The notes under the pieces: generated by a model
Databases searched by the model: none
Told to the model about the DNA's origin: nothing
Seen by the model: only the letters and a program-made list of their open reading frames with translations
From: Azolla caroliniana
Lineage: Eukaryota > Plantae > Polypodiophyta
Reading direction: 5' to 3'
Length of the DNA stretch: 64,000 nucleotides
Assembly (NCBI GenBank): GCA_043228905.1
Contig: JBHGNT010000006.1
Span: 18,662,001 to 18,726,000, forward strand
Shown here: one piece after another, positions 27,506 through 58,593 of the stretch
How the letters are laid out: each line of letters starts with the position of its first letter
How positions within the stretch are numbered: the stretch's first letter is position 1
Made by a program: the position numbers and the translations under genes

Positions 27506-28261
27506 CATCTTGTGTTGATAAAATTTCGGATCCAACCCTTTCATGTTGAAAAGAATAGCGTGCGGAAGCAAATAGAAAACCAAACACAGAAACACAGGTT
27601 TAATGGAGAGCTTGAATATATACAGTACGCAGGAGAGACAGAGAGAGAATGCACACAGAACTCTATTAAAAATAATACTCAATCTGCACATAGGATGTGC
27701 TTAGTGAGCACTTTTATACAAGCCCTGACTTTCGGGCCGACACAAGTATTTACAGTACTTGAATGCTCATAAATGAGCCTACTACACTAACTCCCAAAAT
27801 TATTCCTTACGAGGAATACCATACTAATGGCCTTCTGGTTTATGCACCGATACAACCACATTATGCGTACTATTTTACACACCCAGTCTACGCACTGGGT
27901 TACGCACCGTATTACGCACTCAATGTTGAGCTTGTCACTCAACACTCCCCCTCAAGCTCAACTTGAGGTTCCATCTGCTCTTTCGGATCTACGCTCCAGT
28001 TCCTTCCGGCTTCACGCCTTGCCTGTGCTCCTCGGCCCGTTCGATTCCGCATGCCTCGACCCTTTCGATCGGCTTGTCTGCTCACACGGCCCTTCTCAGC
28101 TTCCTTGTTGTTGCGGTGTTGGCGCCTCTTTTGTTGCTTTCTCTTCCGCTTGGCCCTTGGTTGATTCTGCGTATCCGAATCAAACATCTGAACCGACTCG
28201 GCTTCCTCCGATCGGTTTTCGTTTTCATTCGAGTTGGTTGTCTCAAACTCGTCTTCTGTAT

Positions 28262-30764
28262 TCTCGCCCTTGATGGAGGCGGGTGGTAAGGAGATGGAGA
28301 ATCAACAAGAAGCGATGAATATGATGATGATGATGATTAAGCGGATGCAAGAAGAGCAGCACACAATGTCAGAGATGAAATCGGCAGTAGTGCGGCTTGT
28401 GCAAAGAAACGGGGAATTCGACGGAAAGGATGTGTCACGCTATCTACATGACTACAAGACGGAGATGATGCGATGTGGGATACCGGAAGGATTGCAAGTG
28501 ATATCCTTCAGTCGGGTAGCCACGGATGAGTTACAAGAAAGAATCTTCAAGATACGGCAACAAAATCCAACATGGGAGTCCTTTGAAGAAGCTATACGAG
28601 ACGCATACGACTATCTAAGACCGAAGTAGACGAGGACATGGTCCACGAACGGCGGTCAACAGTGGGTGAAAAGCGGCCACCGACTTCCACTGAAGGAGAG
28701 CTTGATGCGGAAGGGTTCGGAGATGCATGAAAAGTCGCAAGTCGACATTGAAGGGGAGCTTAAAACCGAACCAAAGTCGAGGCCAACAAAAGACGAGGAG
28801 GAGGAAGATCGAGGACGAAAGGGTATCCCCACACTAGTTCCAGAAACTTTGGCGGTTGTGCCCGTGCACCAACCTGAGACCGGAGAGACGGAATGTGTCG
28901 GCGGAAAGGTGGAGGACCGGAAGGGCGACAAGGAAGACAAAGTAAATGAGCACGAACGAAGGGATTCCTTCACCATTGTTTCGGAGACTTCGGTAGTCGA
29001 GCCCGTGTGTCGACATAACACCGAAGATAAGGAAAGTGGCGGCAACGAAACGAAGGTCGAAGCCGATGCATACGAAGGAGAGATAGCCAAGGAGGTGGCT
29101 ATGGGTGAAACAACGGAGGACGATAATACCGTGGATTCCTATCCACTAATTCTAGAGACTTCGGCGGTTGTATTCGAGAACCAACGTGAGACCGGAGAGA
29201 CAGGAGGTGGCGGCAAGAAAGGTAAAGTCGGAAGCCGGTTCGGATGGAAGGTGATCCGGACGGGATTCCGATCCGAAAGAAAGCCAAACCGGGTGAAAGA
29301 GGATTCGACCGAAAGACGACCCGAAAGAAAGCCGAACCGGGCGAATGAGGATTCAACCGAAAGTCGACCCAAAAGAAAGCCGAACCGAAAGGAAGAGAAT
29401 TCGGCTGAAAGACGACACAAACGAAAGCCGAACCGGGCGAATGAGGATTCGGCCAAAAGACGACCCAAAAGAAAGCCGACCCGAAAAGGGGTCGACTCGA
29501 TCAAAACCGGTCGACTGAGTCTGACTTGGCCGAACGCGAATATGGATGGAAGCCGACCTAGCCGAAAGCCGATCGGACGAGACCGATCCGGAAAGAAGCT
29601 AATCCGACTCAAACGGAGGTTGGACCGGTTGAGGCTGGTGAAAACGAGGAAAAGAAAGCCAACCCGAAAGCGATAGATCGAAACCGGGCCGGAAGGAGAC
29701 CGACTCAATCAAAACCGAACAACCGATTCCGATTCGGCCGAATACGAATCCGATCGGAAGCCGATCAAACCGAAAGTTGATCGGACAAGAGCGATCCGGA
29801 AAAAAGTCAAGGTTGATGAAGACAAGAAAGAGGCCAGTAAAAGACACTACCACGAATGACAAGGGCCAAGAATATGACGAGAGAGAACAAAGAATATGGT
29901 GGATCGGATGGCGACAATGGTTCGGGTGGATAGAATGGGTCTACTCAAAATGGAGAGACAAAGTTGACATAGCGGGACAAACGGAGGATGAAGGGGAGAC
30001 AACGAGCATCGGCAACTTCGGCACATACCGGAGGATGTGCGGGTTCGGAGGGGGCGAGTGTCGTAGTGTATTCCACACACTACGTGAAAACCATAAAATA
30101 ACATATCCGATTTTAGATACATATAAATAGATAAATAATATATCAAAAGAATTTATCACGTGCATAGGGCAAGATTTGAACCATGCACCTCCACGTAGAT
30201 AAACCCCAACTTTACCATTGTAATAACTTATCTTTAGTGTTATAAATATAGATTTAACACGTATAAGACCTTTATTTACACATACCTTTATTAAAAGATA
30301 AAAATCATGTATTCTTTAGAGTGTGAATATTTTATTTACACGTGACATTAAAAGAGACTCATGCACATCTAGCGTGCACGAGCCCTATATTTAGAAAGTG
30401 ATAAAACATCACATGCACATTTAGTGTGCATGGACACTTTAAGCGAAAAAGCATGAAGCCATGCTTAGCCTCTTCCATCTTTATATAAGGAGGAGAAAAA
30501 TATGTATATGGTTGTTGATTAATATAGAAGAATTGATCAATCTAATATATTCGTGGGATTCACGAATTTTGCCATCTAAATTACTCTTATAATCTAAATA
30601 TTGTTTTAAAATACACTAAACTCGTGGGATTCACGAGATTACTATCTTACTTCTCTTCCTATTATTCATAACTAGCCTTAAGTTGTATTCCTCTTCCTCC
30701 TAGTCCAAAACCTCGGCGGTTCCCACCCGACTCACGCAACGATCCGGAGCCGAAGGGCTCGACA
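28262..30764 (+). mobile_element. Non-autonomous gypsy-related element B (5' LTR lost): gag-N fragment, repeat ORF, 3' LTR 30059-30764
   Basis: VVRLVQRNGEFDGKDVSRYL gag-N (28234-28629); ETSAV-repeat ORF 28666-29676; WWIGWRQWFGW motif; PPT; LTR TGTCGTAG...CTCGACA. Confidence 0.8.
30161..30228 (-). ncRNA. tRNA-like A/B-box module within LTR B
   Basis: Minus strand: TTACAATGGTAAAG...GAGGTGCATGGTTCAAATCTTGCCC, with a TTTT run ~15 nt downstream. Confidence 0.55.
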
Positions 30765-35468: not shown

Positions 35469-38400
35469 TGTCGTGAAGATCCGTCACTACGCGCGGATCG
35501 TGAGGCGGAACCGCCGGGGTTCTGGACCAGAAGGATTTAGAGTCGATACAAGCTTTGGCGAGAAAGTACTTAAGATAGATTGGGAAAGAGAGAAGTTGAG
35601 ATTACACGATCAATTTGATAACGAATTTCTTCCTCTTAATTTTCATAAAAAAAAACCGTGTTTTTTCTCCTCCCCCTTCCCTCTTTTATAGATGCTCTCA
35701 TGCATATGATGCATGTGAGGGTACAAGACATGCATAAATTGCATGTTTGCCATTTGGCGCTTATGTATTACATGTGGTGCATGATAACCATGTCACTCAT
35801 TTTAGTTCTCATGTATGAGAATTTACATGTAAAAGTACAAAAATATAATTTCAATTAAATAGCATGGCTTAATGGTAAGCCATTTGACTCCTAACTTGGA
35901 GGTGCAAGGTTCGAATCCTTACTTGCCCTCCTTGTATATGTAAATATGTATATATATTTATATATTTATTTATCTAGTCGCCGTACGATTCATGTTGGCT
36001 AGTGTGACCTTCTCGAACTTCTTCGCTAGCTCTTCAATGATGTCGTCATCAATCTTCTTTTCTTCCATATTACTTTGTCTCGGCGGCTCAGCTACTTTCG
36101 GCGATCTTGCTTTCTCCGTGGTAGTCGGTCCCGTCAAGTCGGTGTCATCAACCCATTGGCGACGCTTGTCGAGCCTATTGCATGCCCGCTTCACCGCGAT
36201 CTAGTCCGCTACGAGCCCATTTGCTTGGGTATCATCTTCGAGAAGAGTCCCCAACTCCCGTCTATCCTTTATGTCCACGGCCTTCAAGAAGTACAAAGTC
36301 TTGTCCTCTTCAAGCAACACTTGGTCCGTATTGGGGAGACGACTAAACATCTGGTCGAATTCGTCGTACACCCTCGAGACGCTCATCTTCTTATTCTTCT
36401 TCTCTATCCACTTCATCAGGGCATGTCGAGTCATCCTCGTTGAGTCTTCATCCTCGTTGTGCCTCGGACACGTCCCTTTGATTCATCTCCCTCTTATATG
36501 CATCAAGGAACTTCGTAACGTTCCTTCGATCGAATTGGCCCTCGAGCTCTACGACACGATCGACAGCCTTCTCCACGCTCGCGTCGTTGTCCCGAGATCT
36601 CATCATTTGCTGGACGATTAGCATCATCCTTTCGAGCTCTCCTGCTTGGTTGCTTGAGGACGCCATCTCCAAGTATTAATCTCGACTTGATCTTTTCTAC
36701 CGCCTCTTTCACGTCGGGTTCACCACTTGATTATGTCGTGAAGATCCGTCACTACGCGCGGATCGTGAGGCGGAACCGCCGGGGTTCTGGACCAGAAGGA
36801 TTTAGAGTCGATACAAGCTTTGGCGAGAAAGTACTTAAGATAGATTGGGAAAGAGAGAAGTTGAGATTACACGATCAATTTGATAACGAATTTCTTCCTC
36901 TTAATTTTCATAAAAAAAAACCGTGTTTTTTCTCCTCCCCCTTCCCTCTTTTATAGATGCTCTCATGCATATGATGCATGTGAGGGTACAAGACATGCAT
37001 AAATTGCATGTTTGCCATTTGGCGCTTATGTATTACATGTGGTGCATGATAACCATGTCACTCATTTTAGTTCTCATGTATGAGAATTTACATGTAAAAG
37101 TACAAAAATATAATTTCAATTAAATAGCATGGCTTAATGGTAAGCCATTTGACTCCTAACTTGGAGGTGCAAGGTTCGAATCCTTACTTGCCCTCCTTGT
37201 ATATGTAAATATGTATATATATTTATATATTTATTTATCTAGTCGCCGTACGATTCATGTTGGCTAGTGTGACCTTCTCGAACTTCTTCGCTAGCTCTTC
37301 AATGATGTCGTCATCAATCTTCTTTTCTTCCATATTACTTTGTCTCGGCGGCTCAGCTACTTTCGGCGATCTTGCTTTCTCCGTGGTAGTCGGTCCCGTC
37401 AAGTCGGTGTCATCAACCCATTGGCGACGCTTGTCGAGCCTATTGCATGCCCGCTTCACCGCGATCTAGTCCGCTACGAGCCCATTTGCTTGGGTATCAT
37501 CTTCGAGAAGAGTCCCCAACTCCCGTCTATCCTTTATGTCCACGGCCTTCAAGAAGTACAAAGTCTTGTCCTCTTCAAGCAACACTTGGTCCGTATTGGG
37601 GAGACGACTAAACATCTGGTCGAATTCGTCGTACACCCTCGAGACGCTCATCTTCTTATTCTTCTTCTCTATCCACTTCATCAGGGCATGTCGAGTCATC
37701 CTCGTTGAGTCTTCATCCTCGTTGTGCCTCGGACACGTCCCTTTGATTCATCTCCCTCTTATATGCATCAAGGAACTTCGTAACGTTCCTTCGATCGAAT
37801 TGGCCCTCGAGCTCTACGACACGATCGACAGCCTTCTCCACGCTCGCGTCGTTGTCCCGAGATCTCATCATTTGCTGGACGATTAGCATCATCCTTTCGA
37901 GCTCTCCTGCTTGGTTGCTTGAGGACGCCATCTCCAAGTATTAATCTCTACTTGATCTTTTCTACCGCCTCTTTCACGTCGGGTTCACCACTTGATTATG
38001 TCGTGAAGATCCGTCACTACGCGCGGATCGTGAGGCGGAACCGCCGGGGTTCTGGACCAGAAGGATTTAGAGTCGATACAAGCTTTGGCGAGAAAGTACT
38101 TAAGATAGATTGGGAAAGAGAGAAGTTGAGATTACACGATCAATTTGATAACGAATTTCTTCCTCTTAATTTTCATAAAAAAAAACCGTGTTTTTTCTCC
38201 TCCCCCTTCCCTCTTTTATAGATGCTCTCATGCATATGATGCATGTGAGGGTACAAGACATGCATAAATTGCATGTTTGCCATTTGGCGCTTATGTATTA
38301 CATGTGGTGCATGATAACCATGTCACTCATTTTAGTTCTCATGTATGAGAATTTACATGTAAAAGTACAAAAATATAATTTCAATTAAATAGCATGGCTT

Positions 38401-39037
38401 AATGGTAAGCTATTTGACTCCTAACTTGGAGGTGCAAGGTTCGAATCCTTACTTGCCCTCCTTGTATATGTAAATATGTATATATATTTATATATTTATT
38501 TATCTAGTCGCCGGATGCCGGTTCGCCGGATGCCGTCGCCGGATACCAGTGCCACCGCCGGATGTCGTCGGTTACCGGTGCCGGATGCCGTCGGATCACC
38601 GTCGCCGTATTGCCGTCGGATGCCGCCGGATACCGGTGCCGCCGCCGGTCCGGTTTTGGTTGGCCAAAACCCTTTACGAGTAGCTAGGCCACCTCCACTC
38701 TTAGTTCAAGTTACCTTGAACTCTCTATGCTCCACACATAGAGATAAAGATAATATCTTTTGCTCCACCTTATATATGATGAGAGCTGTATTTGTCGTGC
38801 CTATGTGGGATATCTCACAATTTTCTCCTTTCCTTTTACAAACTTTATACCCTCATATCTTGACATTTAGTTGTCCGTTTCTCGTGTAATAAAGTGCATT
38901 CGAAACCTCCATAATTTTGTACTTAGATATTAAATCTATTTAAAATGTTATCTTCACAATTATTGTACTACGTGATTCATACTCGATTTCGTACGTTTTA
39001 TAGGATTTTCACACTATTGCTGAAAATCTTCACGACA
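35469..39037 (-). mobile_element. Element C: deleted, tandemly duplicated derivative of family D with one full and two half LTRs
   Basis: Full LTR 37999-39037; 1265-bp units starting at 35469 and 36734, each half LTR + gag fragment + PBS; 4-bp TSD GCGC/ACGC. Confidence 0.92.
35861..35928 (+). ncRNA. tRNA-like A/B-box module within LTR C (further copies at 37126-37193 and 38391-38458)
   Basis: TGGCTTAATGGTAAGCC (A box, D-stem GGCTT/AAGCC), loop CTCCTAA, AAGG-TTCGAAT-CCTT (consensus B box GGTTCGAATCC). Confidence 0.75.
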
Positions 39038-40395
39038 ACGCGGACACGGACCGATCGTCAAGGCGTTAGTTCGGGCATGCGGGGGGCAAGTCGGGAACTG
39101 GCTGTGGCTGCTGCCTTACGGGTTGTGGGCTGACCGAACTACGCATAGTTCGGTAACCGGATTCATGCCGGCAGAGCTCATGTTTGGGCAGAAGCCGGTC
39201 ATGCCGATGGAACGTACGATCTCCTCGTGGGCAACTGTGGACTGGAGAGACGAGATGAGCCGGGAGGAACTGCTGGCGGCGCGTATACGACAGCTCCAAC
39301 GAAGACCGGAGGACGTGGAGCAGGCTGCGGAAAAGCTTCGGGAAGCAAGGATGAGGAACAAAGCCCGGTTCGACCGAACGCACCAGCTCCGACCGAAGAA
39401 GATTGAGGAAGGCGACTGGGTGCTAGTCTACGACAGCAACCTCGACAACCAGCACCGAGCGACATGGAAGTTCGCAAGAAGGTGGTTCGGGCCTTACGTG
39501 GTACAAAGCGCCAATGACAACGGGACGTACCATCTGGCGGAACTCGACGGCACGAGAGTGGCGATACCGGTAGCTGGGAAGCGGATCAAAGCGTTCAAGA
39601 AGCGTCACGACGACGAGCCGGATCCGGATAACCTGGACCGGGACGACGAACGATCTGAAACCGAGGAAGGACCGACGGGCGGGGAATGAAGGCTGAACCG
39701 GTTTTCTCCGTCCCAACTCAATTTGGCGCATGCCGGTGGATGCGCGGTTAGGTGGGGGCGGATGTCGTGAAGAAAACCGTCCACAAGCGGAATCGGTGCG
39801 CCAGAGCATAGGAACCGGCTCTTCACGCACGTACGCCTTGTGTCGAACATAGGAGAGAATTAGGGACATGGGAGATCCTAGGTAGGTAGATTCGGTAGGT
39901 AGAAAGTTAATAGGAAACGGCTCCCTTCTTGCCTATAAAAGGAGGGAGACGAGGAGGAAGGGATCGCGAAGAGTCAAGGACGAAGTGCTGTCGGGCTGTC
40001 GGTCGAAGGCTTCTCTCTCTTCCATACTCCATAGCTTCTTTCTGTGCAGGTTTCGGGAGGCTCGCGCTGCTCTAAGGAATGCTTGAGTGCTTCCGGCAGC
40101 ACCTCCAACCTACACCTTTCTTTCTGTGCGTTTACGAACAGGCATCGACATCTGTTCGCCGGCCTGTTCGATTGTAACCGACTTCGTGTTCTTGTTGTTG
40201 TTGTCTTTGTTAATACATACATACATTCGTGTCTCTCTGTGTCGCTGTCCCACTCGCGTCTTTGTGTCGAAGGGCCGTGTCCCTGTGAATCCACGCTCGC
40301 ACATAGTGGGTCTCTTCTCCTTTCTCTCTTGCTCTTCGGTACAGGACCCCCGAAGTCCCGCCTCATTCCACGCATCCGCGAGGAATACCTCGACA

Positions 40396-41067
40396 ACGTC
40401 ATTAGCTCCTTCGACATAACTCCAGTAGCCATGCCCGAGCAGGTACTGGTGCATCTTGTAGGACCAAGACGCGTAGTTGGTTTTGTCGAGCTTCTCTGTT
40501 GGAAGCGAGCTCGCCATGCCTCTATCCATCGTTCTTCTTGTTCTTCTTTGTCAAGCTGTGTCGGTTGCAGAGAGGTTCTCAACCCTTGCGCTCTGATACC
40601 ATGTAAAAAGTAACGTGCGGAAGTAAGTGTGAAGACCGAACAGGAGGAAGAAAACTCAGGTTCAATGGAGAGCTTGAGCTTACGCAGTATACGCGGGAGA
40701 GAGAGAGAGAGTGAGAGAGAGAGAGAGAGAAAACACACGAACTATATTCAACAAGAACAATCCAATCTCTATTCACCACACTCTATACATATGTGTGTTC
40801 AATGAACACTTTTATACAAGTCCTAGAAGGACTGACCGAAGTACTGACAGTACTTCAATACTCATTAAGAGCTCCTACACTAACTCCCAAATATATTCCT
40901 CACGGAATATCTTTCCTAACGGCCTCCCGGTTTACGCACCAATCCGGCCCTACCTACACACCGGTCTGCGTATCGGTTTACGCATTCAGCCTAACCAATC
41001 GGTCCCAAACGATCCGGTCCTCGGCTTCTTCAGCCGATCTGGCCGATGTTGAGCTTGTCTCTCAACA
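40396..41067 (-). mobile_element. 5' end of a second Ty1/copia element Y (LTR 40602-41067, PBS, gag start)
   Basis: PBS TGGTATCAGAGC at 40590-40601; MDRGMASSLPTEKLDKTNYASW gag; LTR related to that of copia X. Confidence 0.85.
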
Positions 41068-41438
41068 GGAACTTATCGACTATGCGAGTTGGATGGAACA
41101 ATGCTACGAGTGCCTATAGCCGGGAAACGGGTGAAGATTTTCAAGAAGCGGACTGATGAAGAACCCTATGTGATTCTAGACAAGACCGACCGACCAGAAG
41201 GAGCAATCGGACGAAGATCGCGGTGATGGAGAAAGCGAAGAAAGTGGATTAGAACTCATAGTCGACGTAAGGGGAGAATTGGAGGAAGCTTTGGATGAAG
41301 GTGAATAGCAAGCATCGAGGACTTCGGCACATACCGGAGGATGTGCGGGTTAGGAGGGGGCGAGTGTCGTAGTGTAATTCTCACTCTACGTGAAAAATTA
41401 CATTTTTGGTCTCTCCGGATAGGACATGGAGTACCCGG

Positions 41439-44400
41439 TGTCGTGAAGATTTTCGTCCATAGGCGGAAAACCGAGCGAAGCAAGCAAACCCGCGATGTGC
41501 AACGTTGCACATCACCATGTTGTATTTCTATTTATCGATAGTGATAAGTATGGTGCTAGAAATGCACCTTAGGATTTGTAAAGTGTAGAGGTGATGTGCT
41601 TTTGCGCGCACATCCACGTGAGAGAGAGAGATAGGTACATAGTAGTTCGTGTAGAGGTGGGAGTTAAGACCCATCCTTCCCACCTCCCCTAAAATCAAGG
41701 GAAATATCCCCATTGATTGAAAGGGGATATTTTGTAGCACCCCTTTATGTAACGGTCTTCCCTCCTTGTGCTATAAAGGGAGAGGAAGAGCACCATTGTG
41801 GGGGTTGCCTTATTTTGAGTGTGAGTGAGGTATACCATTTCGTTTTAGGGTTAGGGTTTCTTTTCTTCTTCGTCGGATTAGGGTTTCGGGTTTATCATAG
41901 TCGTTTGGTGCGGCCTACGCGGCCGCCATTTTGTAATCGGTTTCGGTTCTAATATATCTTGTTGAGCATTTGGCCTCCATCTTCCTCTTGTTCATTCTCC
42001 CTCTTCTTGTGCTAAGCTCCATTCCGAAGTCCTATTCCTTCTCCCCTTCTCCTTAGTCCGAGACCCCCGTGGTTCCGCCCTTCTCCACGCACGCGCGTAA
42101 CAACGCGACATCTTTGGTGAACCCGACGTGAAGGGCGGCAAGGGAGAAAGAGATGGAGGAAGGCTTCGACTTCGAGGAGATGATGACAAAGATCTTGACG
42201 GACGCCGGACGGAAGAGGGCGAGGCGAGAGGCGGCTCAACAAGCGGTCGAAAGGGTGGTCCGTCTAGTCGGCCGGTTCGATGGGAAGGAGGTCCCAAAAT
42301 TTTTGAGAGCCTACGATGCGGAAATGACGGGGATGGGCGTGGACGAAGCGACGAGGCTAGAGTTCTTTCGTCGAGCGGCGGCCGCATCAAAGTACGAGGA
42401 GGTCAAGGAGCTCCAAGAAGCTCACGAATCGTGGGAGTCCTTTGAAGGGGCTCTAATGGAGGCATACGGGTGCGCGGAATCGGAGGTAAGAGGTCGGCGA
42501 GAGTTCGATCGGTGGATGGCGTCGGCGAGGCGCCATCGGAGCGCAATAGAGGCATTCCGAGAGTTCGAGCGTCGTTTCTCTCAACTCTCGGAGTGGGAAC
42601 GAAGATCGGTGGGGGCGGACAAAGTCCTCCTATTTTTGGAGACGGTCCATCATGAGGAGAGGATGGACATCACGTTCGAGCTTCAAGACGATTATGGGGC
42701 GCATGGTCTCACCGAGGAGTGGCCCGAAGTGGAATGGGTGTGTCGGCAACATGAGGCGAGGCGGTCGGCCACAACACGGCCCGCGAGCGGGGGAGAAGAG
42801 AGAGCGACGACCAACTACGCCATGCCGCCGGACGAGAGCTCATCGCGAACCGGTTTGGAGGGGCTCGACCTACAAGCGCTAATACGGGAGGCGTGCGGGC
42901 TCGTAATGGCGAAAATCGAAGCCGAAGAATGGCTTATTGCGGGGTCGGGCCCGAGCGGATCGGAGGACGCGGAGGAAGGAGCTTCCTCACACATGGAGGA
43001 CGGGGCCTATGCGGAGGCCGAAAGAGAATGGTACATCGGTACCACGGGAGAGGGTGCGGAGCGAGCCGCCCTCTCGACATGGGGGGAAAGAACGACCGAG
43101 GACGAGGTCGGGGACGGTGAGGCGGCGATCGCCGATTCGAGCGGACATGGCGGATTCGGGACATGGTGGCCCGAATCATCGAGTACGGAGGAGACAAGCG
43201 GCGGTACCGCAACCTTCCACGCACCGGTTCAAGAGACCCCGGCGGCCGGCCCGAGCGCCCGCGTGAGACCGAGGGAAAAGCATGGTGGCGGCGGCAAGGC
43301 GGGCAACCGAGACAACGGTAAGGAGACCGCGGAAGAGGCGGCCGCAAGCATAACCGATGCTTGCATATACGGAGGCGGGGTAGCCACGGACAACGACGTC
43401 CGAGCGGAGGTGGCTACGGACATTACATCGACGAGCGGCGGTCCCGCGACCTTACACGCGTCATTCCGGGAGATCACGGCGGCCGGCCCGAGTGCCCGCG
43501 TAAGACCTATGGTGAAAGGCGGTGGCTGTGGCAAGGCGGGCGACCACGGCGTCGACACGAGAGAAGGTGCGGAGCAAGCGACCGTCTCATCTCGGGGAAA
43601 AAGAACGGCCATGGACGAGGCCGATATCTACGGAGCGATGGACGCCACTTCGAGAGTGGGCGGAAGTTTCGGGACGCGGTTGCCCGAAACGTTCTACGAG
43701 GATTTCGCGAGCATACTCGAGGCTTGCGAAATGGAGGAGGAAGAGGAGACGAGCGTCGGTGTCGCGACCTTCCACACACCGGCCCTAGAGGCTTCGGCGG
43801 TCGGCCCAAGTGCCGGCACGAGACCTGGAGCTACGGACGGTGGCGGCGGCAAGGCGGACAACCGAGATAAGGACGAGACCGGCGAAGAAGAGGCGGCGGC
43901 AAGCATACTCGATGCTTGCGAAACCGAAGACGGGGTAGCCACGGACGACGATGTCCGAATGGAGGTGGCTACGGACGAGAGGAGTGGTGGTGTCGCGACC
44001 TTCCACACACCGGTCCTAGAGACTCCGGCACCCGGCCCGAGAGCCGGCGAGAGGCCTAGAGTGACGGACGGTGGCGGCGGCAAGGCGTGCAACCGAAACG
44101 ACGACGACATGGGAGAGGGTGCGGAGCGAGCAACCCTCTCGTCTTGCGGCGAATGGACGGCCAAGGATGAGGCCGGTGACTACAAAGCGGAGAGCGCCAC
44201 TTCGAAAGTGGGCGGAAGATTCGGGGCACGGCGGCCCAAAACATCGAGCGGAGAGGAGGCGAGCGGTGGTGCCGCGACCTTCCACACACCGGCCCTAGAG
44301 GCTTCGGCGGTCGGCCCGAGTGCCGGCACGAGACCTAGAACGACGGGCGGTGGCGGCGGCAAGGCGGGCAAACAAAATGATGCGGAGAACGGCGAAGAAG

Positions 44401-47044
44401 AGGTGGTGGCAAGCATACTAGAGGCTTACGGAATCGGAGATGGGGGAGCCGCGGACAACGACGTCCGAACGAAAGCGGCTACGGAGACAACAAGCGGCGG
44501 TGCCGGGTCCTTACCCACACCAATCCTAGAGGCTCCAATGGCTGGCCCAAGTGCCGGCATGAGGCTTAGTACGACGGGAGGTGACGGCGGCAAGGCGGGC
44601 AACGGAATCGAGAAGGAAGATTGGAGCGGACGGAGGCAAGACCCCTTGACGTCGGGGCCGGAGACTTCGGCGGTTGTGCTCGAATGCCAACGTGAGACCG
44701 GAGAGATGGGCGGTGACCGTGAGGAGGTGAGGCCCGGAGAGAACGCATACGAAGACGAGTATGCGGGGCCCGGAATGGGCGTATACGGTGGGTCCGACGG
44801 AGAGGACCGGAGCGGAAACGAGGAGAGAGTCGGGAACCGACCCGACCGGAATACGGCACGGAAGAAGAAGAGAGTAAGGGCCGGCGAACCGGGCCCAAAC
44901 CGAAGGAAGCCGGCGAGACCGATTGGCCGGTTACGGTTACGGTTACGATGGGAGCCGGTAAGCGCGAGATGGAGGCTAGCCGGGCACGACGACCATGGTT
45001 CGGGGGAAAAACGGAAACAAACGAGACCCTCCATACCCACTCTAGAGACTACGGCGGTTGCGGATCAACATAAGACCGGAGAAACGGCGGGTGGCGGCGA
45101 GGAGTCGGAGACCGGAGCGTACGAGGTTACCGGAACGGATATCCGGTACGAGATGGTGGACGGGTGGGTCCAAGACGGCGAGCCCGTGTCGGAACGGGCT
45201 ACGGCGACAAAGGAGGAGAAGACCGACACGGAGGTCGGGTCTACGGCGGAAGAGCGAGACGAGATGCATGCAATACGGCCGATGGAGGGCCAAGACACAA
45301 GCATGCCTACGAAGGAGCCACATCGAGCAACCGAAGATGACGGTCGGATCACGCCTTCGAGAGGCGAATACGAGGAGGAAGGCGGCGACGACGAGACCCG
45401 GCACGATGCTAGGGAAGATTGGTGGGAAGAGGTGGCCTACGGAGAGGCTAAGACCGGCGGCCACGAAGATAAGACCCGAGAGGGATCCTCCACACCGGCT
45501 ATAGAGACTCCGGCGATCGGCGCGAGTGCCGACGTGAGACCAAGAGTGGCGGACGGTGGCGGCGAGGGGACGAAGGCCACAACGGATGAAGGCACCGAGA
45601 GAGGCATACGGGAGGTCGCGGTGAACGAAGATGTATGCGCCCAAAGGAACGAACACGACATCACGAAGGATGTGTGCGGTCGAGCGGGCCAAGGGGGCCA
45701 AGAGGGTGTTCCTCCGAGCGAAACGGAGGTCGGGGAAGAAGGGTACCTTTCCGAAAGGGTACGCGAAGAGGAGCGGAATGCGAAACGTGCAATACGGCCG
45801 CATGAGGGCCAAGCAACGAGCACGGGAACGATGGTATGCTCTACGGCGAGAGAGCACGGCAAGCAAGGGGAAGACGAAAAATGCGTGATGGGGTCATCGA
45901 AGGACCGAAGCACGAGCACGCATTCGGAGGACGACACCGACGTACGGGGAAAGCCTACGGAAGGCAAGCGCGGAGCGAGAAGAGTCGGCACGACGAGGTG
46001 CGCGGCACAAAAAAGGCGGATCCGGAGGATATGCGAGGCGGACAAAGGGTCGGCAACGGCGTTCGGGAGGACCGAACGGGGAGGAAAGCGCGGGCATCGG
46101 ATATGGCAGTCCGAGTGTAGTCGGTGGTTCGAGGAAACACGGTGGATGTGGCGGATCGGATGGAGCCGACGGTTCGAGACCATTCGGCGGAGATGGTGGG
46201 CCGGAAGGCGACGGTGGTTCGTGTGGACGGGGTGGACTTGCTCGAAGTGGAAGACGAAGCCGGGCAAGCCCACGAGGTTGTCAAGGGCTCGGTTGGCCGC
46301 CTTGGCCGAAAATCTCGCGTTTTGTTCCCCTTTTGGCACATACCGGTGGATGTGCGGTTAGGTGGGGGCGGATGTCGTGAAGATTTTCGTCCATAGGCGG
46401 AAAACCGAGCGAAGCAAGCAAACCCGCGATGTGCAACGTTGCACATCACCATGTTGTATTTCTATTTATCGATAGTGATAAGTATGGTGCTAGAAATGCA
46501 CCTTAGGATTTGTAAAGTGTAGAGGTGATGTGCTTTTGCGCGCACATCCACGTGAGAGAGAGAGATAGGTACATAGTAGTTCGTGTAGAGGTGGGAGTTA
46601 AGACCCATCCTTCCCACCTCCCCTAAAATCAAGGGAAATATCCCCATTGATTGAAAGGGGATATTTTGTAGCACCCCTTTATGTAACGGTCTTCCCTCCT
46701 TGTGCTATAAAGGGAGAGGAAGAGCACCATTGTGGGGGTTGCCTTATTTTGAGTGTGAGTGAGGTATACCATTTCGTTTTAGGGTTAGGGTTTCTTTTCT
46801 TCTTCGTCGGATTAGGGTTTCGGGTTTATCATAGTCGTTTGGTGCGGCCTACGCGGCCGCCATTTTGTAATCGGTTTCGGTTCTAATATATCTTGTTGAG
46901 CATTTGGCCTCCATCTTCCTCTTGTTCATTCTCCCTCTTCTTGTGCTAAGCTCCATTCCGAAGTCCTATTCCTTCTCCCCTTCTCCTTAGTCCGAGACCC
47001 CCGTGGTTCCGCCATTCTCCACGCACGCGCGTAACAACGCGACA
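41439..47044 (+). mobile_element. Element E: complete, young, pol-less LTR retroelement
   Basis: Near-identical 672-bp LTRs (41439-42110, 46373-47044); perfect 4-bp TSD CCGG; PBS TGGTGAACCCGACGTGAA at 42115-42132; PPT at ~46360-46372. Confidence 0.95.
42153..46361 (+). CDS. 1402-aa Gag-N / acidic repeat / Trp-Arg-tail protein of element E
   Basis: Single intact ORF filling the internal region; first ~200 aa align by eye with D gag (GRFDGKEVPKFLRAYDAEM vs GQLDGRNVTKFLDAYKREM); no zinc knuckle, PR, RT or INT motifs. Confidence 0.85.
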   Translation: MEEGFDFEEMMTKILTDAGRKRARREAAQQAVERVVRLVGRFDGKEVPKFLRAYDAEMTGMGVDEATRLEFFRRAAAASKYEEVKELQEAHESWESFEGALMEAYGCAESEVRGRREFDRWMASARRHRSAIEAFREFERRFSQLSEWERRSVGADKVLLFLETVHHEERMDITFELQDDYGAHGLTEEWPEVEWVCRQHEARRSATTRPASGGEERATTNYAMPPDESSSRTGLEGLDLQALIREACGLVMAKIEAEEWLIAGSGPSGSEDAEEGASSHMEDGAYAEAEREWYIGTTGEGAERAALSTWGERTTEDEVGDGEAAIADSSGHGGFGTWWPESSSTEETSGGTATFHAPVQETPAAGPSARVRPREKHGGGGKAGNRDNGKETAEEAAASITDACIYGGGVATDNDVRAEVATDITSTSGGPATLHASFREITAAGPSARVRPMVKGGGCGKAGDHGVDTREGAEQATVSSRGKRTAMDEADIYGAMDATSRVGGSFGTRLPETFYEDFASILEACEMEEEEETSVGVATFHTPALEASAVGPSAGTRPGATDGGGGKADNRDKDETGEEEAAASILDACETEDGVATDDDVRMEVATDERSGGVATFHTPVLETPAPGPRAGERPRVTDGGGGKACNRNDDDMGEGAERATLSSCGEWTAKDEAGDYKAESATSKVGGRFGARRPKTSSGEEASGGAATFHTPALEASAVGPSAGTRPRTTGGGGGKAGKQNDAENGEEEVVASILEAYGIGDGGAADNDVRTKAATETTSGGAGSLPTPILEAPMAGPSAGMRLSTTGGDGGKAGNGIEKEDWSGRRQDPLTSGPETSAVVLECQRETGEMGGDREEVRPGENAYEDEYAGPGMGVYGGSDGEDRSGNEERVGNRPDRNTARKKKRVRAGEPGPNRRKPARPIGRLRLRLRWEPVSARWRLAGHDDHGSGEKRKQTRPSIPTLETTAVADQHKTGETAGGGEESETGAYEVTGTDIRYEMVDGWVQDGEPVSERATATKEEKTDTEVGSTAEERDEMHAIRPMEGQDTSMPTKEPHRATEDDGRITPSRGEYEEEGGDDETRHDAREDWWEEVAYGEAKTGGHEDKTREGSSTPAIETPAIGASADVRPRVADGGGEGTKATTDEGTERGIREVAVNEDVCAQRNEHDITKDVCGRAGQGGQEGVPPSETEVGEEGYLSERVREEERNAKRAIRPHEGQATSTGTMVCSTAREHGKQGEDEKCVMGSSKDRSTSTHSEDDTDVRGKPTEGKRGARRVGTTRCAAQKRRIRRICEADKGSATAFGRTERGGKRGHRIWQSECSRWFEETRWMWRIGWSRRFETIRRRWWAGRRRWFVWTGWTCSKWKTKPGKPTRLSRARLAALAENLAFCSPFGTYRWMCG

Positions 47045-47313
47045 CCGGCGAGAACCGGAAGAAGGAACCGGTAAGGACCGAAACCGGTAAGGAGACCCGG
47101 CAAGAGCCGGATGAAGAAGGCTGGTGAGAGTCGGTGAGAAACGGACGAAGAGATCGGTAAAAAGGTCCCGGTAAGAACCGAACAAAGAAAACTAGCAAGC
47201 ACCGGATGAATCAGAACCGGAAAGAGTCGGATGAAGAAGGCCGGTGAGAGTCTCTCATCGGATGAAGAGACATATTTGTAAATAGAAGAAAGTATAAAAA
47301 TATACATATTACA

Positions 47314-50291: not shown

Positions 50292-52379
50292 TTTGTTTTT
50301 CTGGTTCTTTTTGAAGGTTAGGTTTTCTTCTTTGAGCTAAAGGCGGTTGCAGAGGTTCTCAACCCTCGCGCTCTGATACCATGAAAAGAATAGCGTGCAG
50401 AAGCAAATAGAAAACCAAACACAGAAACACAGGTTTAATGGAGAGCTTGAATATACATGGTATGTGGGAGAGACAGAGAGAGAATGCACACAGAACTCTA
50501 TTCAAAATAATACTCAATCTGCACATAGGATGTCCTCAGTGAGCAGTTTTATACAAGCCCTGACTATCGGGCTCACACAAGTACTGACAGTACTTGAATG
50601 CTCATAAATGAGCCTACTACACTAACTCCCAAAATTATTCCTTATGAGGAATACCATACTAACAGCCTTCCGGTTTACGCACCGATACGGCCACGTTATG
50701 CGTACTATTTTATGCACCCAGTCTACACACTGGGTTACGCACCGTATTACGCAGTCAATGTTGAGCTTGTCACTCAACACATGTGCTCGTGTGACCATGC
50801 GAAAACATCCTTATATTCTCGGAGCAGTTCTGTCATTGACGTCTTCTCACCTAAGGTTAGATCCCTAGCAATTGAGAGTAGTCGTGGCATTGCCATAGTT
50901 CCGATGTTGACTTCTTCTAATGCAGAAGCGGGGACTCGACACGAGATTAGCATTTCTTTTTCGAACGCTTCTCGTGCCCTACTTAACTCCATTATCGACT
51001 CAGGATCACGCTCGTACTACTCTTCTTGAAGTGTACTAGGTGGGGCGTACTCCGCAACGGTATCCATTACATCAATTTCGAATAATGGCACGATCCGTGG
51101 GTTTTCATGGAGGTATGCCTCAAGCTCAGTATCATCCAATCCTTCCAGCATATTAATATATTCGATGTATAATGGTGTTATGCCCTTGGTTGGGGCCACC
51201 GTTTGCCTGCGTAGGTACATGAACTTTGTTGCGGCCTCGTCGGAAGCTGATATAGTTATGTTGCCAATTTTGCTTGATGTTGGCAGAGCGTAACCATGGT
51301 CTGCCCAGCAAAATTGGATACGCTTCAGGAGCGTCTAATGCAAGCACTACCGCAAAGATGTCAAAGTACATGGCCTCCGACGACAATTCCTAATTTCCGA
51401 ATTAACCTGAGGGGCTTGATGGAACGAGTGTCCACCATACGGAGCCAGAAAGGACATGCTTCCCAATTTGTAATGCCCATCGACGATGCATCCTCGAGTA
51501 CACGTACTTGTACTAATGATGTTTACGCCGGACCCCCCATCGACGATGCATCCCAGTATTTCTGGACCCTTCAGTACGAATTTAATGGCCGGATTGTGGT
51601 AATCTACTACTGTTGGGCCGATACTAGACTCCGCGAAATTGGCTGAGACATCTAATCTGGTTGTTCCTCGTATACGAGTCCCGACCACCTGTTGGAATCG
51701 TGGAACCAAGAGGAGTAGCTTATCCGTGGTCAACGTTATTTCACAGTCTGCCAATGCTTGCCATATGGGGTCTGGTGATAATGCGTTATCGCCCGTTTGC
51801 AAGTTTGCGTTGTCGTGAAGATTTTCGGCAATAGTGTGAAAATCCCATAAAACGTACAAAATCGAGTATGAATCACGTAATACAATAATTGTGAAGATAA
51901 CATTTTTAATATCTAAGTACAAAATGATGGAGGTTTCGAATGCACTTTATTAGACGAGAAATAGACAACTAAATGTCAAGATATGAGGGTATAAAGTTTG
52001 TGAAAAGAAAAGAGAAAATTGTGAGATATCCCACATAGGCACGACAAATACGGCTCTCATCATATATAAGGTGGAGCAAAAGATATTATCTTTGTGTCTA
52101 TGTGTGGAGCATAGAGAGTTCAAGGTAACTTGAACTTAGAGTGGAGGTGGCTAGCTACTCAAAAAAGGTTTTGGCCAACCAAAACCGGACCAGCGATGGA
52201 GCCGGTGATCCGACGGCAGCATGCGGCACCGGTATCCGGCGTCGGCGTCGGCATCCGACGACGGCATCGGTATCCGGCACCGGTATTCGGCGACGACATC
52301 CGACGACGGTATCCGGCGAACCGGCGACTAGATAAAATAAATATATAAAAATATATACATATTTACATATACAAGGAGA

Positions 52380-52446
52380 GGGCAAGTATAGATTCGAACC
52401 TTGCACCTCCAAGTTAGGAGTCAAATGGCTTACCATTAAGCCATGG
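52380..52446 (-). ncRNA. tRNA-like A/B-box module within LTR D (second copy at 59266-59332)
   Basis: Minus strand: TGGCTTAATGGTAAGCCATTTGACTCCTAACTTGGAGGTGCAAGGTTCGAATC, then TTTTT ~30 nt downstream. Confidence 0.7.
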
Positions 52447-52852
52447 TATTGAGTTTAATTATATTTCTATCATTGTACTTTTACATGTAAATTCTCATCC
52501 ATGAGAGCTAAAATGAGTGACATGGTTAGCATGCACCACATGTAATACTTAAGCACCAAATGGCAAACATGCAATTTATGCATGTCTTGTACCCTCACAT
52601 GCATCATATGCATGAGAGCATCTATAAAAGAGGGAAGGGGGAGGAGAAAAACACGGTTTTTTTTTTATGAAAATTAAGAAGAAGAAATTCGTTATCAAAT
52701 CAATCGTGTAATCTCAACTTCTCTCTTTCCCAATCTATCTTAAGTACTTTCTCGCCAAAGCTTGTATCGACTCTAAATCCTTCTGGTCCAGAACCCCGAC
52801 GGTTCTGCCTCACGATCCGCGCGTAGTGACGGATCTTCACGACATAATAAAG

Positions 52853-52870
52853 TGGTGAACCCGACGTGAA
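52853..52870 (+). other. Primer binding site complementary to tRNA-Trp 3' end
   Basis: TGGTGAACCCGACGTGAA is the reverse complement of TTCACGTCGGGTTCACCA, the plant cytosolic tRNA-Trp(CCA) 3' end as I recall it; same PBS in C and E. Confidence 0.8.
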
Positions 52871-52905
52871 AGAGGCGGTAGGAAGGATCAAGTCGAGATT
52901 AATAC

Positions 52906-55107
52906 TTGGAGATGCCGTCCTCAAGCAACCAAGCAGGAGAGCTCGAAAGGATGATGCTAATCGTCGAGCAAATGATGAGATCTCGGGACAACGACGCGAG
53001 CGTGGAGAAGGCTGTCGATCGTGTCGTAGAGCTCGAGGGCCAACTCGATGGAAGGAACGTTACGAAGTTCCTTGATGCATATAAGAGGGAGATGAATCAA
53101 AGGGACGTGTCCGAGGCACGTCAAATCGCAAGCTTCAAGAGAGTTGTCGCCAACAACATCCAAAGACGCGTCATCGAGCTTCAAGAAGGAAAGACAACAT
53201 GGTCCGAGTTCGAGAAAACGATACTAGCGGAGTTCGTGACTGAAGACTCAACGAGGATGACTTGACATGCCCTGATGAAGTGGATAGAGAAGAAGAATAA
53301 GAAGATGAGCGTCTCGAGGGTGTATGACGAATTCGACCAGATGTTTAGTCGTCTCCCCAATACGGACCAAGTGTTGCTTGAAGAGGACAAGACTTTCTAC
53401 TTCTTGAAGGCCGTGGACATAAAGGATAGACGGGAGTTGGGGACTCTTCTCGAAGATGATACCCAAGCAAATGGGCTCGTAGCGGACTAGATCGCGGTGA
53501 AGCGGGCATGCAATAGGCTTGACAAGCGTCGCCAATGGGTTGATGACACCGACTTGATGGGACCGACTACCACGGAGAAAGCAAGATCGCCGAAAGTAGC
53601 TGAGCCGCCGAGACAAAGTAACATGGAAGAAAAGAAGATTGATGACGACATCATTGAAGAGCTAGCGAAGAAGTTCGAGAAGGTCACGCTAGCCAACATG
53701 AATCGTCGGGGCCCTAAAGGAAAAGAACCCTTTAGATGCGTGTGGTGCGATAGCATGGACCACATGAGAAGGGATTGTGCGAGCCTTCGAGAGGCGATTC
53801 GACAAAATATCGTATACATAGAGGACAACATGATCTGCTCAAGCGAGACTAGAAGACCCCTACGGGTGAATTTCGGAAGAGGAGGAATGAAGAGATCTAT
53901 GGAGGATGCCGATGCGACTCATGTGGATGCGATGCACTATGCTGCGTCGGCCGGAATAAGAGTCGGGAAAGACAAGACTGAAGCTGCTAGAGCGGGAACA
54001 AAGTTTTGGACTTCCGTTCTCGAATATGAGAAGAAGGGAAAAATCACATCGAACGAGGTAGAGCTTGCGGACCGAAGCGTGCAAAGCATAACCGGGTGGT
54101 CGGATCCGGTGGACGACAACACCATACTTGCAGAGGTGATGTGCGACAACCACGAGGTGTTCGTCGAAGAAAAGAGAAAGAGAATAGAAAAGCAAGGGCC
54201 ATAAAAAAGACATGAAACAAGGAACGTGAAAAAGAAGGACGATGTGGAGACGAGTCGACCTTTACAAACGGAGGAACGAGAATCAAGCCGAAAAGGGGAG
54301 CCGAGCATACGAGTTGAAGAAACGGTTCGGCCCGTGAAGGTTGGTGTCGAAGACCCCGCTCGGAGGACAAGGACCATACCTACCTATAAGCTAAGGTCGG
54401 ACATAGAGTAGACGACGGACGTAAAGAAGATTCTCGAAGAACGAGTTCTTGATAGCCATGTAACTTTGTCCTTGAGGGAATTGCTTGGCATTACGAAGGA
54501 GTTCCATGACACGATCGTGGACCTTGTAAAGAGAAAGAGACAACAATCGGACGAGGAAGAAGAGAAGCCGCAGAAAGAAAAAACGAATGCCATAACGATG
54601 GCAAGAGACGAAATCGATGAAGATATGGTGGACAGCCACTACACTTGACCTCATTGGGCACGAGCGACAACGGAGACGCCGGTGAAGATCGGGGAGAAGA
54701 AAGAGACTGTCGTAGCCTTGATCGACCACGGCTCGGAGATCAACCTCATGTCAACCGACTTCTATAAAAAGGGAAGATGGCCAATTAATACAAACCACGG
54801 ATGGAAGATTCGCGCGGCAACAAAGTCTACGGAGGACTTGTACGGAGCTTGTCCCAATGTCAAAATCACGATCGGGGATGTGGAGATGGATCAACACTTT
54901 TTCGTACAAGAATCGGCATCGCATCCTGTCATCCTAGGGCAACCTTATATCACATCATCTCGGATGGAGACCAAAGTGTTCGATAATGGAGCAGCCTTCG
55001 CACGAATAAAGAGTCTTGACAACCAAAGATCGGTCCAATTCCTAACAGTGCGAGCCCATCATGAAAGGAATAGAGATAGTCTCGGAGGCGAATCCTCGGA
55101 TTTTTAG
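52906..55107 (+). pseudogene. Element D gag-protease
   Basis: In-frame ORF pieces split by stops; CVWCDSMDHMRRDC knuckle; LIDHGSEIN protease. Confidence 0.88.
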
Positions 55108-55160
55108 AGCGGACTATTGAAGCATGGGGCACAAATAGTCCGAGCAATCACAAGACCCCA
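55098..55160 (+). other. Putative -1 ribosomal frameshift signal, element D
   Basis: GGATTTT-TAG, stem GGACTATT/AATAGTCC, loop TGGGG pairs with CCCCA; -1 frame open into pol. Confidence 0.75.
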
Positions 55161-55172
55161 CAAGAAAGAAGA

Positions 55173-58100
55173 GTGCGTGGATTGCAAGGAGAAGCAACAT
55201 GTGTCACACCTAGTGGCGCATGTAAACTAGTACTACCCGACAAGAAGCACAAGAGCCGGATACAAGAATTCGAGAAGATGCTGAAAGAAGAGAACATAAT
55301 AGAAGAAGGGGAGTTCGTGACTCATATTATGGAAGAAGCCTCATTTAACGACACCATCGCCGAAATCGAGGATGTCGTGGACTTGAGCTATCTTCACAAC
55401 CAATGCTTGATTTCGGTTAACTCCGTCAACATGTACGCTATCATCGATGAATACCGTCGTGGCATCTCGATGAAGGAAGCTGACATCAACACGAAATATA
55501 AAACGGTGAATAAGAAGATCAAGCCAGTTGCGGTTCCGCTACCGGAAGATAGCTGGCAAAAGATGAAGGAAGTCGCTAACGATCCAAGCTTAAGAGATCC
55601 GAAGAAGATAGGTCATGACTTCACCAAAGAGACGAAGGGGAAGCTACGAGTTGGAAAGGAGGATTTCCTTCTCCCTGAAGAGGAGCGAATGTTTCGCGAT
55701 ATGCTTGAGAGACATGGGAAGGCTTTCGCATTCTTCCCACGAGAAATCGAATGCGCCGACCCAAAGGTTATAGAGCCAATGGTGATCTTCACGGTGCCTC
55801 ATGTGCCTTGGAATTTGAAACCAATACCGGTTCCGAGAGCACACCTTCCGAAGCTGATCGAGCTCTTAAAGGAGAAGGTGAGTATGGGAATTCTAGAACC
55901 GTCGAATGCTCCTTATTCCAATAGGTGGTTCACGGTGCCGAAGAAGAATGGATCATTGCAATTCATCCAAGATCTTCAACCCGTCAACAAGGTGACAATT
56001 CGAAATGCCGGAATTGGTCCGAGCGTGGACGAATTTGCCGAAGCGTTTGCGGGCCGGTCCATCTACTCCATTGGCGATCTCTACTCCGGATATGACCAAT
56101 TCCAGTTGGCGATCGACAGTCGGGACATTACAACCATGAGGACTCCGATCGGGCTTGTGCGGATGTGTACCTTACCCCAAGGCGCAACGAACTCGGTGGC
56201 TCATATGGTGAATGCCATGAATAAAGTCTTGAAGGATTGCATTCCGGACATCACGATGCCATTCTTGGATGATATTCCGATAAACGGATGTTCGGATGAG
56301 GAGAAAGATGAATCGAAAGATAAGGAAGGTTGTAGAAAGTTCGTTGCGGATCATATGAAAGATTGCGAGAAGGTGCTTCAAAGGCTCGAAGATGCGAATT
56401 TGACATTTTCGGGAGAAAAATCCGCATTCGGGCAACCGGAGATCTTGGTGGTAGGTCACTTGTGTGGAGCATACGGCCGGAAGCCCTCGCCATCCAAAGT
56501 GAACGCAATCCAAGACATGAAAGAAGAATGCGAAAACCAAACGGAGGTTCGAAGGTTCCTTGGAGCGTGCGCGTTTTATCATATATGGATTCCTCACTAC
56601 GCTCATGTCGCCGAACCGTTATATGGACTACTAAAGAAAAGAATAAAGTTCGAATGGCGAGACGAGCACACAGAGGCGATGCGAAGATTAAAGAAACTGC
56701 TTCTTGAAGCTCCGGCACTAAGGAAGGCCGACAATGCCGAAGGGAAACCAATTTACGTGACCGTAGATACGAGCCCAACCGGAATCGGGTGGGTCATCAA
56801 TCAAGAAGGTGAAGATAATGCGCGATATGCCGTCCGGTTCGGAGCAAAGATTCTCACCGAACGGCAACAAAGATATGCCCAAGTCAAGCGGGAACTTTGG
56901 GGTATTGTGTCGGCAGTGAAGACGGACAAAGATTACCTGATCGGGTCAGAAGTGATAATAGAGACAGATTGTCTCCCAATTCTCGGAATGATCTCGGGAT
57001 GTGCGACCCCAGATCTTGCTATGCTAAGGTGGATCGCCTACATCAAGTCTTTAAACCCAGAGATCCGTCACATCGCAGGGAAGAAGAACGCCATGGCTGA
57101 CATGCTATCGAGGGCAAGATTTTCAAATGGAAGTAACATGGTTTTGGAAGATGAAGATGTCGCCCTCAACTTCTTCAAGATGGCTCGATTGTCGGCGGAA
57201 GACCAGGACACGCAAACCCTCCACGCCTTCAACGAGAACGAGTACGAAGGAGAATGGTTACTCATCGGTAGATTCCTAAGAACATTGACAACAGATGCTT
57301 CGTTGACAAAGGAGGAGGCCCTACGAATCCGAAAGAAAGCTTATCGATACTTCTTGAAGGGAGGATTCCTTTGGCGACATCCAAAAAAAAAGGACAGGAA
57401 TACCACGTCGAGTGGTGGTAAAGAAAGAAGAGCAAGAGACGCTGATGACCGAATTCCACGAGAGTGCTTGGGCAGGTCATAGAGGAACATGGGCGACGTT
57501 TGAAAAGTTGAAGGAGAAGTACTGGTGGCCAAGCATGTACAAAGATGTAGTCCATTTCGTGTCCACATGCGAAACTTGCCAAGTATATTCAAATATACGT
57601 CATCGTGATGAGTTAAAGCCGACATACCCACTCACCATACACTTCAAATGGATGGTGGATCTGGTCTCGATGCCAATGGGAGTGGGACAAATGAAGTACT
57701 TAGCACTGGCAAGGGAAGACTTGACAAATCAAGTGGAAGGACGAGCCTTGACAAATAAGACGACTTCAGCCGTTTGCAAATTTCTACTTGAAGATGTTGT
57801 TTGCCGATATGGATGTGTAGGGAAGATAGTGGCCGACCGAGGGGAGTTGGACGTGCACGAAGCGACGGAGCTCTTCGAAAGACTAGGCGTGAAGCTCTCC
57901 CTCACGACTGCCTACAATCCGGAAGCAAATGGGAAGATCGAGCGAGGGCATGGACCTATCGTTAAAGCCATCGTACGGGCATGCAACGGTCGAGTCGGGA
58001 ATTGGCCATGACTATTACCCTATGCCTTGTGGGCCGATAGAACGACACATAGCTCGGTGACAGGGTATATGCCGACGGAGCTTATGTATGGACAAAAGCC

Positions 58101-58593
58101 GATTATGCCCATCGAAAGAACGATCGCCTCATGGGTAGCGATACCGTGGGGGAACGAGATGAGCCGAGAAGAGTTATTAGCGGTGCGGATAAGGCAACTT
58201 GAAAGAAGACTTGAAGATTTAGAAAAAGCGCGAAAGATGATGAAGGCAGCCCGAGTAAAGAACATAGTTCGGTTCGACAACACGCATCGACTTCGTACCA
58301 AGAAGATTGAAGAAGGGGATTGGGTTTTGGTTTACGACAACACCCTTGACAATCAACATAGTACAACAAGGAAGTTCGCAAGAAGATGGTTCGGGCCGTA
58401 TGTGGTGACAAGTGCCAACGATAATGCCACATACCACCTTGCGGAACTAGACGGATCAAGGTTGGCCGTACCCATTGCGGGGAAAAGAGTAAAGCTTTTC
58501 AAGAAAAGACAAGAAAAGGATCCTGACCTCGATTACCTCGACGATGAACATAATAGGCCGGATGAAAATGAAGACATGGAGGAATCTAATTGA
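55173..58593 (+). pseudogene. Element D pol (RT FLDD, RNase H, integrase)
   Basis: ORFs 55173-57482, 57412-58011 and 58027-58593, colinear with element F pol. Confidence 0.9.

Follow-up and report, generated by a model that had tools for sequence, protein, structure and literature searches.

The window analysed, a stretch of 64,000 nucleotides of the Azolla caroliniana genome, was found to contain on its forward strand an LTR retrotransposon of 5606 bp (41439-47044). Its 5' LTR (41439-42110; 672 bp, TG..CA ends, TATAAA at 41772) and 3' LTR (46373-47044; 672 bp) differ at only one position (42080, C/A), and the element is flanked by a perfect 4-bp target-site duplication (TSD), CCGG, of the NCGN type (41435-41438 and 47045-47048). 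With the substitution rate of 1.3e-8 used in PMC4350172, which may not be the rate of the host, this one mismatch corresponds to an insertion age of roughly 60,000 years. The primer-binding site (PBS; 42115-42132) is complementary to the 3' end of tRNA-Trp. A single open reading frame (ORF) of 1402 aa (42153-46361) starts 20 nt downstream of the PBS and ends with a stop codon inside the polypurine tract (PPT; 46358-46372), 11 nt ahead of the 3' LTR. The PPT is adjoined upstream by a conserved nucleotide motif (46335-46357) that is also present in autonomous elements. Near-identical LTRs, a perfect TSD, an intact PBS and PPT and a stop-free ORF of 4.2 kb between them had been predicted from the sequence, and all of these features were confirmed.

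The insertion site lies approximately 65 bp into the 3' LTR of another, older element (41060-41438 and 47045 onward); the integrase end and PPT of this older element were found immediately upstream. An autonomous gag-pol element whose PBS and LTR-end motifs are the same, considered below as a member of the candidate helper family, is located on the forward strand at 51905-59738 (ends approximate); this neighbouring copy carries in-frame stops, in agreement with the earlier remark that adjacent elements contain nonsense codons. Two pol-less relatives are present on the same strand: the 3' part of a distant one (L090, family C; 1-1700, right end approximate), whose 620-aa ORF starts left of the window and ends at 1177, and a broken copy from family D (28192-30130) with a capsid remnant, a spacer and a Trp/Arg motif. 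On the minus strand, at 35469-39041, three identical 1265-bp units, which derive by deletion from the autonomous family, are arranged in a local tandem. Each unit comprises an LTR end, a PBS and a broken gag, and the tandem is nested in another autonomous element; among 40 scored matches, the deletion junction was found at this locus only. The open frame of a protein kinase gene (18222-19553) was the sole host-like gene checked.

The N-terminus of the encoded protein had been described as resembling a Gag capsid, and this was borne out by structure prediction. A model built from a 27-sequence alignment (pLDDT 81) matched the Arc, dArc, Copia, PEG10 and Ty3 capsids lobe by lobe, with Z of 8.0-8.5 for the C-lobe; the Drt2 CA-CTD was also among the matches (Z 6.6). 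The predicted N-lobe comprises aa 45-107 (42285-42473; Arc N-lobe Z 8.9, rmsd 1.9, 63-69 residues aligned), and the predicted C-lobe comprises aa 111-207 (42483-42773; Arc C-lobe Z 8.5, PEG10 CTD Z 8.0). Foldseek with this model returned nothing at E<=0.001, although capsids topped the list, and a fold predicted for aa 1-210 from the single sequence was of low quality (pLDDT 59) and gave no match. In the ESM Atlas, aa 1-215 were placed near Retrotrans_gag clusters (0.93). A Pfam search with the whole 1402-aa protein gave no match at E<=1, with only sub-threshold matches for the first 200 aa, and none of the Pfam pol domains (PR, RT, RH, IN) was detected in the ORF. The capsid region is 32% identical to the Gag of the candidate helper over 220 aa. 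Considering the predicted fold together with this identity, the N-terminus is predicted to be a two-lobed Gag capsid.

The capsid is followed by an acidic linker (42774-43187), at the place where the helper Gag carries a zinc knuckle; a search of the protein for CX2CX4HX4C was negative, as expected from the original prediction. An in-frame repeat array (43188-44643) consists of six units of 231-318 nt, the number of which varies between copies by gain and loss. Together with one more core at 45491, the repeats span approximately 490 aa. The extension of about 1100 aa therefore does contain repeats, as had been claimed, but they cover less than half of it; the remainder (44644-46082 in the main) is a non-repetitive acidic spacer with basic patches at aa ~900-1000 and ~1200-1400 and a 6-nt microsatellite near 44928. 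The predicted Trp/Arg-rich tail was located at 46083-46259, and its last 25 aa (46185-46259) form a motif common to all families of such elements. No Pfam match was obtained for this motif. The ESM Atlas gave no usable match for the tail, which indicates neither absence nor novelty. Apart from the motif beside the PPT, no nucleotide homology was found between the spacer or tail and the autonomous elements of the window.

Copies of the element were searched for in 523 Mb of genome sequence. With the first 690 internal bases as a query, all 40 scored matches showed at least 99% identity, and the copies were dispersed, having distinct TSDs. The exact LTR end followed by the PBS occurred at 136 sites. 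The first 40 of the 136 listed sites, without copies already examined, were taken as a PBS-picked sample, the majority of which belonged to an older sister family, B, of family A represented by the window element. In total, at least five pol-less families with a common layout were found in the genome: a capsid without a zinc knuckle, an acidic spacer, a basic stretch, the 25-aa Trp/Arg motif and a stop no further than ~100 nt from the 3' LTR. At 20 loci of families C and D, the capsid, spacer, basic stretch and Trp/Arg motif were contained in ORFs of 614-741 aa within elements of ~3.3-3.6 kb. The stop position differed between these loci, from ~90 nt ahead of the 3' LTR to 50 nt inside it, and two of seven family D loci were broken. 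A further type was recognised with the tail of P0018. Outside the Azolla caroliniana genome, homologues were found only in ENA, JGI and MGnify assemblies (5 long and 59 short). The element is thus real and young and belongs to a large pol-less clade. Three loci (L056, L066 and L082) had the same LTR end and PBS with a divergent Gag N-terminus and possibly represent another family.

The TSD was perfect in 32 of the 36 copies with both LTRs, and all 32 were of the NCGN type. The PBS sequence is complementary to that at the 3' end of tRNA-Trp(CCA) genes in the genome; this 3' end had 63 matches genome-wide, and the three that were checked, all on C1, were tRNA-Trp genes. Arrays of tRNA-Trp-like 3' ends were observed at G000:C8:17796786-17823371 (period of ~1.2 kb), C16:4989495-5105657 and C5:10105608-10112201. 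The 4-bp NCGN TSD is described as peculiar to the Phygy clade (100%), in which a tRNA-Trp PBS is found in 81% of elements (Neumann et al. 2019, PMC6317226). By TSD type and PBS, the satellite appears to fit the Phygy (Ty3/gypsy) lineage. However, Phygy as described there is based on autonomous elements of 7.7-10 kb from Physcomitrella patens that lack extra ORFs, whereas the satellites are pol-less.

The element had been proposed to be a satellite, and its pol-less, non-autonomous character and the presence of an autonomous family that shares its PBS and LTR-end motifs agree with this. This family occurs genome-wide as well as in the window, with open pol frames of up to ~1170 aa. In its members (L140-L149), Gag and PR share a 732-aa ORF that includes a CCHC knuckle, and pol occupies an open frame of its own, with the order RT-RH-IN, which is the gypsy order. 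From the common PBS and LTR-end motifs, this family is the likely helper. No autonomous element with the satellite's own LTR was found among the 40 best U3 matches, the paired matches being 3.6-5 kb apart.

Of the described non-autonomous elements, the TR-GAGs (Chaparro et al. 2015, PMC4350172) are similar in having LTRs, a PBS, a PPT, a TSD and a single Gag-only ORF without pol, and in being multicopy, recently amplified and in need of a helper in trans. However, TR-GAGs are defined there as shorter than 4 kb (1-6 kb in the HMM filter) with a TSD of 5 bp, while the window element, at 5606 bp, is over 4 kb and under 6 kb and has a 4-bp TSD. Since its TSD is not of 5 bp and family A exceeds 4 kb, the satellite is better described as TR-GAG-like, derived from a Phygy-type lineage, than as a TR-GAG. 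The ORF of TR-GAG1 has 433 aa and includes a zinc knuckle but no internal repeats; unlike TR-GAG1, the satellites have no knuckle, a spacer of 400-1200 aa, a terminal Trp/Arg motif and stronger selection on the frame than on the protein. The available text of PMC4350172 reports no selection test. In the literature outside subscription papers, no account of such pol-less Phygy derivatives was found, nor one of frame-only selection in LTR elements.

Stop gains were counted in 33 independent close copies and compared with the expectation from a context-aware substitution spectrum. Left out were L011 and L042 (3' LTR out of range), L032 and L045 (truncated), the twins L013 and L027, and the recombinant L046. 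In codons 1-1150, 2 stop gains were found against 13.4 expected, and in the whole ORF 8 against 19.4, whereas the five control frames had gained 64 against 76.7 expected. The LTR-LTR differences in these 33 copies totalled 25, which implies ~77 post-insertion changes out of 657 variants; most of the variants had therefore passed through transposition. With L046 excluded, all 11 discrete non-frameshifting indels before aa 1150 and the 6-nt microsatellite kept the frame, and the three frameshifts in this part were all private. Inherited frameshifts occurred only from aa 1151 on (after ~45600), where another frame stays open to the end. In 29 of 38 family-A copies, a frame ran open to 25 nt or less from the 3' LTR: the Trp frame in 17 copies, a Gly-rich frame in 11 and the third frame in one, which is among the 3/35 copies without the usual stop of that frame. 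Three of the 11 Gly-frame copies already carry a stop in the abandoned Trp frame.

The window copy was compared with the older family B copy L064, which, like L083, had been picked because it is open. In a codon-blind alignment, none of the 767 aligned codons was out of frame at a dS of 0.24, so that the frame persisted through 25% divergence and ~35 gaps; a neutral simulation of this comparison gave 6.4 expected stops per lineage (P(0)=0.001). Variants were also counted in 10 older family B copies, 30 of 40 loci being excluded by identity or coverage filters. The 183 variants found in at least three copies included 131 nonsynonymous and 52 synonymous changes and no stops. Three stops, all CGA>TGA, were each found in two copies, and 11 were private; the pair with two stops in common was no closer than other pairs. 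In a poorly aligned part of family B, some gaps of apparent frameshift length were common to more than one copy.

It may be concluded that the open frame is under selection, with stops and inherited frameshifts depleted. An ORF that is open merely owing to youth and a purine- and GC-rich, T-poor sense strand would agree with context-aware dN/dS near 1 over most of its length, with the decay of older individual copies after insertion and with the low T content (12-14% at each codon position). However, since the other five frames of the ORF region hold 17-35 stops each, the openness is not a by-product of composition; moreover, those frames gain stops at nearly the expected rate, and the open frame survives the divergence from L064 and recurs in five families. 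We therefore regard the neutral explanation, which the original prediction had set against its own proposal, as very improbable: dN/dS near 1 over most of the ORF was indeed found, but the strong depletion of inherited stops and frameshifts is not neutral.

Constraint on the protein sequence was much weaker than that on the frame. With context-aware counts, dN/dS within family A was 0.8-1.4 for the linker, repeats and mid spacer, 1.0-1.5 between families A and B, and 1.15 between the window copy and L064. Maximum-likelihood codon models without CpG context gave 0.79, 0.66 and 0.72 for the spacers of families A, C and D, some of these values being significantly below 1. Most of the protein is thus barely constrained, the spacer (0.7-1.2) being weakly selected. 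Across families, dN/dS of the capsid was 0.46 (p 2e-9), and within family D it was 0.38; a likelihood-ratio test for the family-A capsid was invalid because the free model scored lower, and this region is biased, since copies were chosen on it. For the 25-aa motif, dN/dS in 11 non-redundant copies, mostly obtained by protein search and hence biased, was 0.35 in its own frame and 1.5 and 1.1 in the others. In three window copies found without protein search, pS of the motif was 0.38-0.67 and pN 0.19-0.28. Both ends of the ORF were at one time under selection as protein, and the capsid and the motif are conserved as protein only across families.

Within families, even these parts could be lost. 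The C-lobe was gone in 23 of the 40 PBS-picked copies (16 by a deletion of 249 nt, 6 by 222 nt and 1 by ~244 nt); 22 of the 23 losses were in frame, and the 222- and 249-nt deletions may be sequential. In-frame loss of parts of the N-lobe was found in L053, L088, P0004 and P0005. At least one capsid lobe was retained in every sampled intact relative. In family B, both the C-lobe and the second half of the motif are missing, yet this was the most frequent type in the PBS sample.

These losses bear on the role suggested originally, namely a capsid fusion that acts in trans to modify or poison helper particles, as a parasite or a dominant-negative restrictor. Ty1 p22 and Drt2 are truncated-capsid factors that act in trans against their parent element, and the satellites resemble them in having a single capsid lobe from a Gag remnant. 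Restriction of Ty1 by single-lobe capsid proteins (trans-dominant Gag, as cited in PMC4974528) and the Drt2 match of the capsid model are in line with such a role, and a bulky acidic tail could disturb the lattice. However, unlike p22 and Drt2, the satellites amplify actively, and so rely on a working helper, and show selection of the cis type; they have retained their LTRs and occur in many copies, unlike fixed host genes. Under action in trans, selection against stops lineage by lineage would not be expected, yet it was observed, and amplified lineages have lost either a capsid lobe or the Trp/Arg tail. The proposed role in trans was therefore not upheld and is considered improbable.

The explanation that we favour, with a probability of about 0.55, is that the element is a pol-less Ty3/gypsy satellite whose frame is likely kept open by translation of its own RNA to the purine tract, while the protein itself is partly dispensable. 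The helper would supply RT, IN, PR and complete Gag. Because stops are purged in each transposing lineage, the effect should fall on the RNA that encodes the frame, so that selection would act in cis, on the RNA of the element itself. The simplest possibility is that translation as far as the purine tract leaves only a short untranslated 3' part and a stable RNA, and the filter would probably be nonsense-mediated decay of RNAs with long 3' UTRs or a related translation-coupled check. The capsid lobe and the Trp/Arg motif may have given an extra advantage in cis, being kept across families and dispensable in some bursts. For coronavirus and potexvirus defective interfering (DI) RNAs, translation is needed and the product is not. 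Poliovirus DI RNAs are similarly helper-dependent, with in-frame capsid deletions and a frame kept open, but they derive from a non-integrated RNA virus and still need non-structural products in cis (PMC8496841). Decay triggered by long 3' UTRs has been described in plants, with mixed transcriptome-wide support (PMC6173133), and the stability of Ty1 RNA may depend on translation rather than on Gag (PMC3945221).

Translation to the end of the RNA is supported by the ORFs of families C and D, which differ in length and stop site yet all end within about 100 nt of the LTR. Counting against it, the Gag-PR ORF of the candidate helper stops ~3.5 kb ahead of its 3' LTR, so that the helper RNA copes with a long downstream stretch; the stops common to two family B copies, the frameshift-length gaps in this family, the choice of L064 and L083 as open copies and the retention of at least one capsid lobe in all sampled intact relatives also weigh against it. 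Moreover, the conservation of the capsid and motif and the maximum-likelihood values for the spacer indicate that translation alone is an insufficient explanation.

The conserved ends are better explained, and the lost tails worse, if the nascent protein acts as a tether in cis: a capsid lobe would co-assemble with helper Gag, the spacer would provide reach, and the basic and Trp/Arg-rich tail would grip RNA, a membrane or the ribosome, so that the element's own RNA is pulled into helper particles and the frame stays open because the chain must be continuous. In agreement with this, both protein ends are conserved across families, sampled intact copies keep a capsid lobe, and the satellite capsid resembles that of the helper. 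The acidic and basic composition was alike in all 18 ORFs compared (D+E 18-20%, K+R 14-20%), and the end of the motif lies 9-47 codons ahead of the stop in families A, C and D. However, the motif is untranslated in 12 of the 29 open family-A copies, mostly via inherited frameshifts, and the abundance of family B without the C-lobe and half of the motif also counts against a tether; as the main cause it is possible but rather unlikely. Translation to the purine tract remains the preferred reading, and a combined scenario is put forward only tentatively: the satellite clade may have replaced pol and the knuckle by a fully translated filler with a Trp/Arg cap, so that its own translation, by RNA protection and a nascent capsid tether, wins it a place in helper particles.

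For non-autonomous LTR elements, RNA signals in cis are generally assumed to be sufficient. Dozens of fresh copies vary naturally in a way that separates the open frame from the protein sequence, with selection on the former, and the role of translation in the fate of LTR genomic RNA becomes testable without engineering. It also follows that a long intact transposon ORF is not proof of a functional protein. To our knowledge, cis-preference has so far been described mainly for non-LTR elements and for defective viral RNAs; if the combined scenario is true, the satellite clade would be an LTR-element case of cis-preference via own translation. The 25-aa Trp/Arg motif, with codon-level conservation in five families, is a candidate for a new peptide that binds RNA, a membrane or the ribosome.

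Some unusual arrangements were observed among the copies. Head-to-tail satellite tandems with one common LTR were present at L012/L013 (G000:C7:1881723-1893714) and L105 (C12:3270000-3279900), and several more tandems, with a spacing of ~2.7-2.9 kb, appeared in the match list of family D. In the family C copy L102 (G000:C13:2214800-2220300), the ORF continues in frame from the start of the 3' LTR into another gypsy element, by which RT/RNase H-like sequence is appended to give a 1005-aa chimera.
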